Notes under the pieces: generated by a model
What the model saw: only the letters and a program-made list of their open reading frames with translations
Database searches by the model: none
Told to the model about the DNA's origin: nothing
Origin: Bacteroidales bacterium
Lineage (GTDB): Bacteria > Bacteroidota > Bacteroidia > Bacteroidales > VadinHA17
DNA length: 64,000 bases
Assembly (NCBI GenBank): GCA_035531395.1
Contig: DATKTA010000035.1
Location: 72,736 to 136,735, forward strand
Reading direction: 5' to 3'
Translations under genes and position numbers: made by a program
Shown here: positions 3,221 to 63,656 of the stretch, one piece after another
How the letters are laid out: each line of letters opens with the position of its first letter
How positions within the stretch are numbered: position 1 is the stretch's first letter

Positions 3221-4204
<984 letters not shown>

Positions 4205-6593: not shown

Positions 6594-7238
6594 TTATTTA
6601 TCCATTAAATCAATACAATTTACATTGAAAACCATACCTGCCTCCTCGAGTCCAAGTTTTCTCGCTTTTTGAAGATCCAGACATCCACCTTCTTTGTCTC
6701 CTGTATCTATCTTTATTATGCCACTCCAATAAAACGCCTGGCTCTTTTGTAATCTGGTACTGTATATCGAGTTGGTCACCTGCTCAAAATCAGTCAGAGC
6801 GCCGTTAAAATCTCTTAGCTGATGTTTTGCCTGTCCCCTTACCAGGTAGTATTTTTCATTATCATTTCCTCCACTGATTGCTCTGGTAAAATCATTAACT
6901 GCGCCCTTGTAATCTCTTATACTGAATTCAGCCCAACCTCTTCTTCCATAAGTATTAAAATCATTAGGATTTATCTCCAGTGCTTTATTATAATCTTCAA
7001 TAGCTCCCCTGAAGTCATTAATATAGTACTTTGCCACTCCTCTGTTTTCATATGCCTCAAGAAAGGCTGGATTAAGCCTGATTGCCTCAGACAAATCAAT
7101 TATTGCTTCGGGATAATTTCTATTAGAAATCTTTTCTGTTCCGCTATAGAAATACCGCTTAGCCCTTATACCAGGAGTCTGACTATTTGCCGAAAAAAAT
7201 AATGACAACAACAACACCGCAATTGCAAGTTGTTTCAT
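6594..7238 (-). CDS. TPR-repeat secreted protein
   Basis: Signal peptide followed by repeated AxxxYxxAIxLNP-type TPR units. Confidence 0.8.
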   Translation of the reverse strand: MKQLAIAVLLLSLFFSANSQTPGIRAKRYFYSGTEKISNRNYPEAIIDLSEAIRLNPAFLEAYENRGVAKYYINDFRGAIEDYNKALEINPNDFNTYGRRGWAEFSIRDYKGAVNDFTRAISGGNDNEKYYLVRGQAKHQLRDFNGALTDFEQVTNSIYSTRLQKSQAFYWSGIIKIDTGDKEGGCLDLQKARKLGLEEAGMVFNVNCIDLMDK

Positions 7239-7301
7239 GTAAATTTAAATGCTGATTATCAATAATATATCTTTACTGATTCAGTTTGTTGCCAGATTTT
7301 T

Positions 7302-59459: not shown

Positions 59460-59561
59460 ACTTAATTGTTTAAAATTGATGCAAATAATATTTAAAAACT
59501 TACAAATTTAAAGATAAAATAAATTTACTATACTTATTATTTAAAGTAATAATCTAATAAA

Positions 59562-60473: not shown

Positions 60474-61234
60474 TTTAATTCCCTGATATTAAAAACTGGT
60501 CCTTCCGTACATGTGCAGATATTTCCTCTGGTCGTTTCAACAATGCAGCAGAGGCAGATTCCAAAACCGCATGCCATCAGATTTTCAAGTGATACTTCAC
60601 AGTTGATATTGTTTTTTCGACAGTAATCTGCAATGGAATGCATCATCGGATCAGGTCCGCAACAATATATTATACTTATATTTTCTGACTTTAGTGCCGA
60701 ATGTGAGGTAACCAGTCCTTTTTCTCCAACGGAACCATCTTCTGTAGCTATATGGACTTTCCCCACATTGGTATACTCCTCAACGAGAATAACCCGGGTT
60801 TTATTTCTGAAACCAAGAAGATACTCAATTTCAAATCCTCTGTTTTTCAAATATTTACCAAGAAACAGAAGTGGTGCTATACCCGTACCACCGCCAACCA
60901 GAAGAATTTTTTGCTTACCGGCAGGTATGCTGAATGAATTTCCAAGGGGATGAACAACATTAAGATAATCTCCTTTTTTCAGATTATAAAGCATTGCTGT
61001 TCCTTTTCCAAGCACCTGAATCAGCATTTTGAATCTGTTTCGGATAAAATCAACATCGTGAACTGAAATAGGCCTTCGAAGAAAAGTATCAGGGCTGCCT
61101 TCGATTTTTACCTGGACAAACTGTCCTGGTTTGAAATCAGGAATCTTACTCATTGATTCCAGTTCCATAACGCAGAAATCATCTGTAAGAAGCTTATTTT
61201 CAACTATTTTTAAATCCTCAACCCTTTTTGTCAT
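60467..61234 (-). CDS. pyrK: Dihydroorotate dehydrogenase electron-transfer subunit
   Basis: FAD/NAD-binding fold ([14 protein letters not shown]) and a C-terminal Cys cluster ([11 protein letters not shown]...CTC). Confidence 0.88.
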
Positions 61235-61333
61235 TCAACACTGGTTTAAGGCAAAGATAATTTTAAAGTAGGATTTCAGGAAATATGAAGTACTGTTATT
61301 TCCAATTGTTTTTAACATTCTGAAAAGATTACT

Positions 61334-61771
61334 TTATTTTCTTGGCAAAAATTCTTCAAAACTGTTATTGTCATAGAACCATACTATCTTAACTACCTTA
61401 TTTCTTCCGTGTCCGGGTAATTGTTCTTTGTCTGTGAAAGTCTTAAATTGTTCGATACCATCAGTTTTAGTCTCTCCTTCAGAAATTGTACTGTCCTCAA
61501 GACCAGAATCAGTTACTCTGTTTACAGGGGCAGAGTTGTCAAACAACGATTGTATTTTACCTTCCTTGTACATTGGACCGTTCCCGAACAGGAGCCAGTC
61601 TGTCGAAATGTTCCTGTATTTCTCCAGCATCTTAAGGACAAAATCAAGACTTGGATTATTCCTTCCGGAAAGAATGTGAGAGATACCTGAAGGCTGTACA
61701 CCGATCTCTTCAGCGAATTGTGCTGACGATTTGTTTTCTGACATTAAAAATTCACGGATTCGTTCATTCAT
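61334..61771 (-). CDS. Small XRE/Cro-type HTH transcriptional regulator
   Basis: HTH QFAEEIGVQPSGISHILSGRNNPS. The C-terminal ~70 aa have no recognised motif. The ATG at 61771 is preferred over the TTG at 61780. Confidence 0.8.
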   Translation of the reverse strand: MNERIREFLMSENKSSAQFAEEIGVQPSGISHILSGRNNPSLDFVLKMLEKYRNISTDWLLFGNGPMYKEGKIQSLFDNSAPVNRVTDSGLEDSTISEGETKTDGIEQFKTFTDKEQLPGHGRNKVVKIVWFYDNNSFEEFLPRK

Positions 61772-61789
61772 TTTTGGCAAGTATTGATA

Positions 61790-61847
61790 TTACAAATGTA
61801 AATATTAATTAATTTACACATGTAAATATATTTAATTACAAATGTAA
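61790..61847. promoter_or_regulatory. Three perfect TTACA-N2-TGTAA palindromes spaced 24 and 22 bp apart, directly upstream of the XRE gene
   Basis: Sites at 61790-61801, 61814-61825 and 61836-61847, read directly. Confidence 0.55.
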
Positions 61848-62117
61848 TTTTACTGTATTCACCATTTGAGAATAATATAAAAATATTCTTCAAATTACTG
61901 ATTATTAATATCTTAATTAAAGCATGTATTTAATCATTTACTTTAGTTTAGATATATATGTATCTGGTAAATAGATATATATACTAAATATCTAATTAAA
62001 TAAGCATGCTCCACGCAATATATTTTTGTATTTAGCTATATCTATTAATTATATAGAATCTTATATAATACTGATTATTAATTCTATATGATTGATAAAA
62101 CTAATTTTAAAAAACAA

Positions 62118-62197
62118 TTACCTGTGTAACTATTAAAAGTAGTAATTATGGTTACATCTGTACATATTTACTTATGTAAATGGGGTTACAGTTGTAA
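62118..62197. promoter_or_regulatory. Second cluster of the same palindrome (one perfect, three with a single mismatch)
   Basis: 62118-62129 ttacc tg tgtaa. 62152-62163 ttaca tc tgtac. 62168-62179 ttact ta tgtaa. 62186-62197 ttaca gt tgtaa. Confidence 0.5.
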
Positions 62198-62420
62198 ATA
62201 ATGTCTTCATGGATATATTTTACTATGATGTCAATATTTTTTCATTTTTCTGATTTTTACCAATTCCAATTTCCTTTGCTAAATTCAATTTTCACTAATA
62301 CTCCTGTCCTATTATTCAAATATTCAATTCTCACGGGGTTATGAGTAATTTAAAAAAAATGGATTTTTTGAATTGATTTATCAGTTAGATTGTATTTCTT
62401 TAAAAGTTTAAATTTTCTGT

Positions 62421-63656
62421 ATGCAAAAAATTAAGATTGCTTTACCCTTGCACTACCAGATCCTTATTGCACTTATTGCAGGAGGTTTCTTTGGTTATTT
62501 ATTCCCTGACAAGGTTATATACACAAACTGGGCTGGTGAAGTCTTTCTCAGGGGATTAAATATGATTATCATCCCATTAATATTGTTTTCTATAACAACT
62601 GGTGTTGCAAGTGTTGGCTCGGGAGGCAATCTGGGACGTCTCGGACTAAAGACAATGGGATTTTATTTCCTTTCCACATTCCTGGCAATTATTACAGGAT
62701 TCTTCTTTGTTTCAGTAATTAAGCCTGGTATAGGTGCCGACCTTGGTTTTAAAATGCCGGTTGAGAATATTTCTGCGCTTTCAGATAGCTTTGGCAGAAC
62801 ACTTATAAAGATAGTCCCGACGAATATTTTTGAATCGCTGATGCAGGGTCAGATGTTATCTATAATATTTTTCGCAATCCTGTTCGGCTTTTTCCTCACA
62901 AAAATCAATGAAAATTCACGTATTCTTTTATTGGATGTATTTAATGGAGCCTTTGAAGTTGTGATGAAAATGACCTTGTTCATAATCCGGTTTACTGCCA
63001 TTGGAATCTTCAGTATTACGGCAAAGGTTATTGCTCAACAGGTTGTGATGGGAAACCAGATCAGTGAAGTAATCAGCAGGTTGGGATTATACGTGGTCAC
63101 AGTGCTTGCAAGCCTGATTATTCATGGAGCAATTACACTTCCTATGATGGTCAAGGTACTTGGCCGTTCTAATCCGCTGAAGCATTTCAGGAATATGGCC
63201 ACTCCTCTTCTTACTGCATTTTCTACATCCTCATCAAATGCTACACTGCCGCTTACAATGGAGGCAGTTGAAGATAAAGACGGAGTTTCAAACAAGATAG
63301 CAAGTTTCACCCTTCCGCTGGGGGCAACAGTAAATATGGACGGGACAGCTTTATATGAATGTGTGGCTGTGATGTTTATAGCCCAGGCATATGGGATTGA
63401 ACTTACCTTTGTTCAACAGATGGTTGTTGTATTTACTGCACTTCTTGCTTCAATAGGGTCAGCAGGTATTCCAATGGCAGGACTTGTTATGATGGCAGTT
63501 GTTCTGAAAGCTGTAGGCTTACCTTTGGAAGGCATAGGTCTTATACTGGCAGTTGACAGAATCCTGGATATGTTCAGAACTACAATAAATGTTTATGGTG
63601 ATACTTGTTGTGCAGTTATTATTGCAAGGTCAGAGGGAGAAAATCTGAATATATAA
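62421..63656 (+). CDS. Dicarboxylate/amino acid:cation symporter (DAACS family)
   Basis: 411 aa, multi-TM. SSSNATLP and GATVNMDGTALYE motifs are typical of GltP/DctA/SstT-type carriers. Confidence 0.85.
   Translation: MQKIKIALPLHYQILIALIAGGFFGYLFPDKVIYTNWAGEVFLRGLNMIIIPLILFSITTGVASVGSGGNLGRLGLKTMGFYFLSTFLAIITGFFFVSVIKPGIGADLGFKMPVENISALSDSFGRTLIKIVPTNIFESLMQGQMLSIIFFAILFGFFLTKINENSRILLLDVFNGAFEVVMKMTLFIIRFTAIGIFSITAKVIAQQVVMGNQISEVISRLGLYVVTVLASLIIHGAITLPMMVKVLGRSNPLKHFRNMATPLLTAFSTSSSNATLPLTMEAVEDKDGVSNKIASFTLPLGATVNMDGTALYECVAVMFIAQAYGIELTFVQQMVVVFTALLASIGSAGIPMAGLVMMAVVLKAVGLPLEGIGLILAVDRILDMFRTTINVYGDTCCAVIIARSEGENLNI

Follow-up and report, generated by a model that had tools for sequence, protein, structure and literature searches.

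A putative multi-operator autorepression region upstream of a Cro/C1-type regulator gene in Bacteroidales

What is the role of a long, extremely AT-rich gap, carrying repeated palindromes, beside a small regulator gene of a Bacteroidales bacterium? The gap lies in a 64,000-nucleotide stretch (64 kb) of contig DATKTA010000035.1, which we analyzed at its full length and call the window. It spans positions 61772 to 62420 (649 bp) and is bounded by a minus-strand regulator gene (61334 to 61771, with its ATG at 61771) and a plus-strand SDF/DAACS transporter gene (62421 to 63656). It is the most AT-rich segment of the whole window (20.6% GC vs. ~39% for the window). Recurring within it is a 12-bp palindrome, TTACA-NN-TGTAA (TTACANNTGTAA), which we call a box. 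We find that the boxes are non-random, that their slots, their order of strength, and the length of the spacer between two clusters of them are conserved, and that one box overlaps a promoter element. Furthermore, the motif and the protein family of the regulator co-occur in both search directions, from gene to motif and from motif to gene. We consider it quite probable, from such comparisons of sequence, that the gap controls the neighboring Cro/C1-type (XRE) regulator gene in cis, as a multi-operator autorepression region.

Palindromic boxes and the regulator family

The boxes form two clusters. In the window, perfect boxes start at 61790, 61814, 61836, and 62186, and boxes with one mismatch start at 62118, 62152, and 62168. 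Three lie proximal to the regulator gene (P1 to P3) and the others are distal (D1 to D3, plus one extra box). They are listed without strand.

61790 to 61801, no strand: box P3, perfect; gene-strand sequence TTACATTTGTAA; 36 of 41 loci have a perfect box here, and 41 of 41 keep the central TT
61814 to 61825, no strand: box P2, perfect in the window; 24 bp from P3; an intermediate slot, perfect in 11 of 41 loci
61836 to 61847, no strand: box P1, perfect; 46 bp from P3; a strong slot, perfect in 32 of 41 loci
62118 to 62129, no strand: box D3, one mismatch; gene-strand sequence TTACACAGGTAA; the weak distal slot
62152 to 62163, no strand: box D2, one mismatch; gene-strand sequence GTACAGATGTAA
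62168 to 62179, no strand: extra box between D2 and D1, one mismatch; no conserved slot, rare in other loci
62186 to 62197, no strand: box D1, perfect; 396 bp from P3; a strong slot, perfect in 30 of 41 loci

An earlier, sequence-only reading of this DNA had reported these seven sites (four perfect and three with one mismatch), and all of its coordinates hold. It had also grouped the sites at 62118, 62152, 62168, and 62186 as a second cluster. All four exist, but the one at 62168 falls outside the conserved slots, which are those of D3 (62118), D2 (62152), and D1 (62186).

Base composition does not explain the boxes. The four perfect copies are the only ones in 64 kb, and all are in the gap, while shuffles of the whole window predict 0.08. 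As a stricter control, we shuffled only the 649 bp of the gap (20.6% GC) 5000 times with dinucleotides preserved. These shuffles give an expectation of 0.006 perfect boxes and 0.14 with at most one mismatch (none gave more than 2), against 4 and 7 observed. Thus, AT-richness is not the explanation of the boxes, as the earlier reading had also argued. Motif density in other AT-rich DNA had been set beforehand as a possible refuting test, and the boxes withstand it. Such DNA (30.7 kb from 80 related loci) contains 0.52 sites per kb, one of them perfect, compared with 6.4 per kb, 236 of them perfect, upstream of the regulator gene.

The array is conserved among relatives. The comparison set comprised 80 loci, each from a different GTDB species, with the regulator gene set on the plus strand. 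Upstream of the orthologous gene (60 kb across the 80 loci), we counted 236 perfect boxes and 150 with one mismatch, vs. 3 and 49, respectively, in the other 535 kb. When conservation of the gap was checked across these orthologous loci, both clusters were present in ~67 of the 75 having enough flank. One locus that appeared to lack the distal cluster (L042) was rejected as an artifact, since an assembly gap (an N-run at 3847 to 3955) masks most of its upstream region.

Each box occupies a fixed slot. Measured from the ATG, the slots lie at approximately -28 (P3), -52 (P2), -75 (P1), -355 (D3), -390 (D2), and -425 (D1); relative to P3, they lie at -24 (P2), -46/-47 (P1), -327 (D3), -362 (D2), and -397 (D1). 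Neighboring boxes are spaced 22 to 24 bp apart in P1 to P3 and 34 to 35 bp apart in D1 to D3. The slots also follow an order of strength (P3 > P1 and D1 > P2 and D2 > D3), with D3 retaining chiefly TTACA...TAA and D2 being intermediate. The distance from P3 to D1 is 394 to 398 bp in 30 loci and 387 to 390 bp in 10 loci. Outside its conserved blocks, the spacer sequence has diverged between species with the box slots unchanged. An 11.7-bp phasing of all boxes was also considered; it failed in a second clade and was discarded.

Gene order points to the regulator as the owner of the array. The shared synteny consists of a divergent DAACS gene, the gap, the regulator gene, pyrK, pyrD, an AsnC-type regulator gene, and an SDR gene. 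Approximately 15 loci have another upstream gene, often codirectional, and retain both clusters. Because the clusters are kept in loci without the divergent DAACS gene, the array belongs to the regulator gene.

The regulator is predicted to be a helix-turn-helix (HTH) protein of the Cro/C1 type.

61334 to 61771, minus strand: regulator gene, 145 aa; HTH_3 at residues 1 to 68, then a disordered linker that varies, then a conserved motif at the C terminus

Its start at ATG 61771 is fixed by alignment of homologues. Residues 1 to 68 match HTH_3 (Cro/C1) with 40.6 bits, against a Pfam cutoff of 23. In an AlphaFold2 (AF2) model, the HTH helices (residues 2 to 62) have a predicted local distance difference test (pLDDT) score of ~88 and form a five-helix, lambda-repressor-like fold. 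The linker (residues 78 to 120) is predicted by AF2 to be disordered (pLDDT <50), and the C-terminal KIVWFYDNNSFEEFxP, a 15-residue motif, is predicted to be a beta-hairpin (pLDDT up to 92). We found no Pfam family for the C-terminal motif and no match to Peptidase_S24 in the protein (Pfam, NCBIfam). The nearest folds in Foldseek are those of SinR, P22 c2, P2 C, HigA, and 434 Cro (probability ~1; root-mean-square deviation of 1 to 2 A over 50 to 67 residues), all of which bind operators as dimers. A sequence search of the PDB gave one weak structural-genomics match only (3bs3). The region of the recognition helix, ISHILSGRN, is almost invariant across homologues.

The family is large and falls almost entirely within Bacteroidales. 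Protein searches returned 2835, 5782, and 931 matches, almost all of them from uncultured Bacteroidales. Labilibaculum, Marinifilum, Tenuifilaceae, and Perlabentimonas are the named genera and families among the homologues, and no orthologue from a model organism was named in these searches. A literature search found no description of the regulator family or its motif. A phage origin of the regulator was considered and rejected, given that only three weak relatives were found among the 2.9 million viral contigs of IMG/VR and that the PHROG matches are generic HTH families. The linker varies in length across the family, from ~50 to >230 residues (L112, L151, L153, and L176), and that of L112 contains tandem GLTPDPSPKEKT repeats. 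Constant across these variants are the HTH domain and a C-terminal [IV]x[KR]I[IV]xF[YF]xDxTFxE[YF].

The motif, searched for without the gene, leads back to the same family. We scanned metagenomes by motif only, for two boxes 0 to 8 bp apart, and 120 stretches were returned. Among those with abutting boxes (a gap of 0 to 1 bp), 22 of 38 encode a 30 to 60% identical homologue with the same C-terminal motif. With a gap of 2 to 8 bp, only 4 of 73 encode such a homologue. Nine tandem palindrome arrays among the metagenome matches were set aside as unrelated to the regulator. These arrays (L094-L096, L102, L104, L163, L164, L166, and L208) are mostly on lake contigs, have periods of 18 to 20 bp or ~140 bp, and contain no regulator homologue; L163 has low-complexity open reading frames (ORFs) and resembles eukaryotic satellite DNA.

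The distant homologues, from genomes with 29% to 53% GC, have proximal boxes at -16 to -100 and distal boxes at -250 to -500. Since proximal and distal groups occur here too, the two-cluster layout is a trait of the family, while the exact 3+3 geometry is specific to the clade of the window. Two distant homologues also have a perfect box within the regulator coding region, at approximately +300 to +360 (L070, ~4362; L074, ~4302).

Promoter overlap, autorepression, and a possible loop

The -7 promoter element of Bacteroidetes has the consensus TAnnTTTG. A perfect match to this consensus lies inside P3.

61793 to 61800, minus strand: putative -7 element TACATTTG, inside P3, ending 22 nt before the ATG
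61252 to 61259, minus strand: -7 box of pyrK, TATCTTTG, found in 53 of 58 loci; 25 nt separate it from the pyrK ATG

The central TT of P3 is always kept, so that P3 gives TACATTTG, a form of TAnnTTTG. Within 900 bp upstream of the gene, TAnnTTTG is positionally conserved at P3 alone (51 of 55 loci). P1 to P3 span 19 to 76 nt before the ATG and are dyad-symmetric sites at the regulator's own putative promoter. With the -7 element lying inside P3, occupancy of this box by a protein would occlude the core promoter. A sigma-70 promoter scan gave counts equal to those of shuffles; its model is uninformative for Bacteroidetes.

The promoter of pyrK provides a comparison. It lies directly after the regulator stop codon and has no boxes. 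From the conserved -7 box of pyrK, we conclude that the regulator gene is a separate transcription unit, and its position, 25 nt before the ATG, indicates that such a distance is normal in these genomes. We rejected pyrKD as a regulated target on the grounds of this same -7 box and the lack of boxes there.

The sequence-only reading took the boxes for operators of the neighboring HTH protein, arrayed in two clusters that might loop, and the comparative data support this proposal. The boxes track the regulator gene rather than the transporter gene, their slots are fixed, P3 holds the -7 element, and the motif search returns the same protein family. From these patterns, we infer binding by the regulator, repression, cooperativity, looping, a bending protein, and a role for the hairpin, which would fit together as follows. 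Regulator dimers would recognize the 12-bp palindrome TTACA-NN-TGTAA. The three proximal operators would cover the core promoter, and occupancy of P3 would block RNA polymerase, leading to self-repression. We judge it probable that dimers bind the boxes and that occupancy of P1 to P3 represses the regulator's own promoter. The distal boxes D1 to D3 would raise the local concentration of repressor. They would also loop onto the proximal set via protein oligomerization, possibly through the C-terminal beta-hairpin, and the loop would be aided by a bend at conserved ATCAR (integration host factor [IHF]-consensus-like) blocks of the spacer. Cooperation of D1 to D3 through a loop of ~330 to 400 bp is a serious possibility that falls somewhat short of probable.

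Looping is plausible because the spacer length is tightly held and because an IHF-consensus-like block is positionally conserved. The spacer from D3 to P1 measures 270 bp, is not neutral DNA, and contains the following blocks.

61896 to 61909, minus strand: block A3, ATTAATAATCAGTA, a copy of a 14-nt repeat; its core WA[TC]CAR recurs at approximately -140
61939 to 61953, minus strand: block C, ATCTAAACTAAAGTA; CTAAACT in 32 of 74 spacers vs. 2.3 expected; fixed at -179 or -168
61960 to 61973, minus strand: block A2, TATTTACCAGATAC, between B and C; core near -200 in 33 of 58 loci
61984 to 61997, minus strand: block B, AATTAGATATTTAG; consensus GTTTAGA, the inverted partner of TCTAAAC in block C; less conserved than C
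62069 to 62082, minus strand: block A1, ATTAATAATCAGTA, the second copy of the 14-nt repeat; 55 of 58 loci have the core at -320 to -300

On the gene strand, conserved blocks of the spacer are GTTTAGA at approximately -230, its inverted partner TCTAAACT-AAGTA at -179 or -168, and TATACCAGTA between them. WATCAR blocks occur near -310, -200, and -140, two of which are the 14-nt repeat. This direct repeat, at 61896 and 62069, had already been noticed in the sequence; it is real and matches two conserved ATCAG blocks. The tagatat..atatcta palindromes noticed with it correspond to the conserved TTAGA / TCTAA inverted pair, which flanks a conserved ACCAG block.

The spacer also has properties related to bending. 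In 58 spacers, we counted 32 copies of WATCAR-N4-TTR, the Escherichia coli IHF consensus, vs. 2.7 expected, and 23 of the 58 have it at -320 to -300. AA dinucleotides in the spacers show a 10.5-bp periodicity (z = 3.8). In loci with a P3-D1 distance of 387 to 390 bp, block C is shifted by ~11 bp, about one helical turn. Conserved length, conserved blocks, the IHF-like site, and AA periodicity together fit a DNA segment selected for length and bendability, as a repression loop aided by an architectural protein would lead one to expect, without proving such a loop.

Several observations weigh against autorepression through a looped operator array. No -33 element is recognizable upstream of P3. 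The box spacings of 22 to 24 and 34 to 35 bp do not amount to whole turns of 10.5 bp, which makes simple same-face cooperativity less than obvious. In block A1 of the window, the core is all that matches the E. coli IHF consensus, which the IHF/HU proteins of Bacteroidales may not read. The periodicity signal is modest, and the spacer sequences that give it are phylogenetically related. Labilibaculum and Marinifilum have an upstream region of ~1 kb with many degenerate boxes, which makes the neat 3+3 layout lineage-specific. Finally, a regulator of itself alone would be purposeless, and its own gene is the only target identified in the ~0.7 Mb of family DNA scanned.

Other explanations and other sites

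The boxes could be operators of the adjacent regulator and the distal cluster could still act without looping. D1 to D3 would then be a titration sink buffering the repressor level, a roadblock or insulator that stops read-through from genes upstream, or the control site of an unannotated transcript. We regard this as rather unlikely. It would suit the non-integral box spacings and the lack of a canonical promoter conserved near the distal cluster. Read-through toward the array is also conceivable, as the upstream genes are often codirectional, and the distal pair of distant homologues can lie anywhere between -250 and -500. However, the length of the spacer is constant to within a few base pairs in each clade. 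Its positionally conserved blocks, including the IHF-consensus-like site, would be needless for a passive sink, and none of its ORFs, -7 boxes, or RNA structures is conserved.

The boxes could instead be bound by another factor, such as the AsnC/Lrp-type regulator encoded two genes downstream, with the XRE gene merely being regulated by it. Most close loci share the AsnC-type gene in synteny; it is very highly conserved (80 to 97% identity across loci) and has a box-like sequence in its own promoter.

59500 to 59511, minus strand: possible weak extra operator, TTAAATTTGTAA, one mismatch; at the same place as the AsnC-type gene's -7 box

In most loci, CTTTAAATTTGTAA is kept ~50 nt before the AsnC ATG, and 12 of its 13 positions match P3 and its flanks. 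This recurrent "+2260" site is most simply the AsnC -7 box, which might serve as a weak operator too. Binding of the array by such a factor is nevertheless improbable. Box arrays still adjoin XRE homologues where the AsnC, pyrKD, and DAACS genes are missing, and the motif-only search gave the XRE family specifically. Furthermore, a perfect 12-bp palindrome with 5-bp arms suits a Cro/C1 dimer better than an Lrp/AsnC site. A different binding protein is thus unlikely, because the association with XRE genes runs both ways in loci that share nothing else.

An origin of replication, either oriC or of the iteron type, is very improbable. The gap resembles one in being long, conserved, very AT-rich non-coding DNA with clustered repeats and IHF-like sites. 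However, it has no DnaA box, whether TTATCCACA at up to one mismatch or TTWTNCACA, and we found neither dnaA nor dnaN nor a rep gene within 10 kb. Genes keep a common direction through the gap, and those on the same strand keep their GC skew across it. The replication component of GC skew is essentially unchanged (left, -0.027; right, -0.029, with only 9 kb available on that side). The earlier reading had considered oriC unlikely, and this agrees with our results. The iteron sites that it had kept as an alternative are contradicted by the repeats themselves, which are palindromes rather than tandem direct repeats, by the proximal boxes abutting the start codon and holding a promoter element, and by the same lack of a rep gene.

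It is just as hard to credit that the DNA separating the clusters serves as an invertible promoter or some other substrate of site-specific recombination, an idea that had also been raised from the sequence. The two palindrome clusters do flank ~270 bp, a size typical of Bacteroides invertons. However, the asymmetric spacer and its blocks have the same orientation in 59 of 59 aligned loci, no recombinase gene lies within 10 kb, and the spacer has no conserved promoter, TAnnTTTG included.

A structured non-coding RNA or a small protein encoded in the gap, with the palindromes as RNA hairpins, might be expected of a conserved non-coding region with local inverted repeats, but it can be given almost no weight, since an Rfam scan of 61000 to 63000 at E <= 1 found only a spurious snoRNA match within the coding region, RNAalifold gave 0 consensus pairs in 18 spacers, the arms of the inverted repeats drift independently toward the consensus with no covariation, and the spacer has neither a small conserved ORF nor a conserved promoter.

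Beyond the two clusters, the gap contains a further conserved pair of sites.

62318 to 62331 and 62281 to 62293 (also 62370 to 62376), minus strand: far-upstream pair of the AGAATTGAATATTT type; membership in the array uncertain

Arms of this type occur 38 to 39 bp apart at approximately -560 to -495 in 34 loci, regardless of the upstream gene. The perfect copy is unique in the window, where the second arm is a direct, not inverted, copy. The arms drift independently, with no covariation, and so resemble protein sites rather than an RNA stem. The pair is probably a site for another protein.

Two features of neighboring genes hint at what else the regulator family might control. Downstream of pyrD, Labilibaculum and Marinifilum have two perfect boxes that abut each other (GTTTACATCTGTAATTACATTTGTAAAC; L087, 7212-7235; L088, ~7218-7241), and ~100 bp beyond them comes an aminotransferase-cobD-cobU cluster. 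This abutting pair hints at a second target of the family. In addition, a different dihydroorotate-dehydrogenase-like gene, ~26 to 28% identical to PyrD of the window, follows distant homologues instead of pyrK-pyrD (L061-L063, L067, L069-L071, L074, L107, and L127). As two types of dihydroorotate dehydrogenase gene are found beside the regulator, the pyrD-type linkage recurs across enzyme types. This recurrent linkage hints at nucleotide metabolism or growth control.

Known systems and significance

The closest analogue of the proposed array is lambda CI with its OR and OL triplets. Lambda CI uses the tripartite operators OR1-3 and OL1-3, which have graded affinities, are ~23 to 24 bp apart from center to center, and are brought together by OL-OR looping. 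Here, too, there is a Cro/C1-type HTH, with two triplets of graded putative operators, a proximal spacing of 22 to 24 bp, and one of them over the regulator's own putative promoter. Long-range cooperation of the clusters, known in lambda, may occur here and would fit the 3+3 layout and the conserved spacing. The differences are also clear. The window offers a chromosomal housekeeping context with pyrK-pyrD synteny, no prophage, and no divergent lytic promoters. Its would-be loop measures ~0.33 to 0.4 kb, vs. 2.4 kb in lambda, and its operator is a compact 12-bp palindrome. The regulator lacks an S24/LexA-like C-terminal domain and has a disordered linker and the 15-residue beta-hairpin motif instead.

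Other repressors with several operators resemble the array in part. The GalR-HU repressosome, DeoR (three operators), and NagC are looped, multi-operator repressors assisted by an architectural protein. They share palindromic operators at the promoter and hundreds of base pairs away, a candidate bend site between them, and a constrained spacer. However, the present regulator belongs to XRE and not to the LacI/GalR, DeoR, or ROK families, and has no ligand-binding domain. There are six sites here rather than two or three, and the sole identified target is the regulator's own gene. HipB (four operators), HigA, MqsA, SinR, and the PBSX Xre are XRE regulators with several operators at their own promoters. 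They have the same HTH fold, short palindromic operators, and autorepression via promoter-overlapping operators, which we propose here as well. Unlike the XRE antitoxins, the regulator has no adjacent toxin or antagonist gene, and pyrK and pyrD follow downstream with their own promoter. It also differs from this group in having a second operator cluster 330 to 400 bp away and a C-terminal motif outside Pfam.

The phylum has a CI-like repressor family of its own. The non-canonical LexA of Bacteroidetes has an S24 peptidase domain and binds GGA-N5-TCC or CTAA-N5-TTAG (PMC8565304). Both are phylum-specific families of CI-like HTH repressors with palindromic, autoregulatory sites. However, the regulator described here has neither the S24 domain nor those binding motifs, and we rejected an identity as a LexA-like SOS regulator because motifs and domain content differ.

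The ~550-bp module of conserved non-coding DNA may be more than a set of operators. Its parts are the far-upstream two-arm motif, D1 to D3, the spacer blocks (the IHF-like site and the 7-bp inverted pair), and P1 to P3 over the promoter. It may form a higher-order nucleoprotein switch, that is, a chromosomal "repressosome". A Bacteroidota-wide regulator family that had gone unrecognized would then oligomerize via a novel C-terminal beta-hairpin, wrap or loop its own control region, and act as master regulator of a conserved process. We put this forward as a speculation that is unlikely to be correct.

Outside polysaccharide utilization, the transcriptional control of Bacteroidales genes has been mapped poorly. 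Here, a family of thousands of regulators, including those of the cultured Labilibaculum and Marinifilum, has been defined from sequence alone, together with a probable recognition sequence, a putative promoter, and a conserved multi-site architecture. The box motif could be used to find the regulon of the family in complete genomes. If looping proves true, a lambda-like, two-triplet logic would operate in a non-phage, chromosomal gene across an entire order, and a function would be assigned to an unannotated C-terminal motif.

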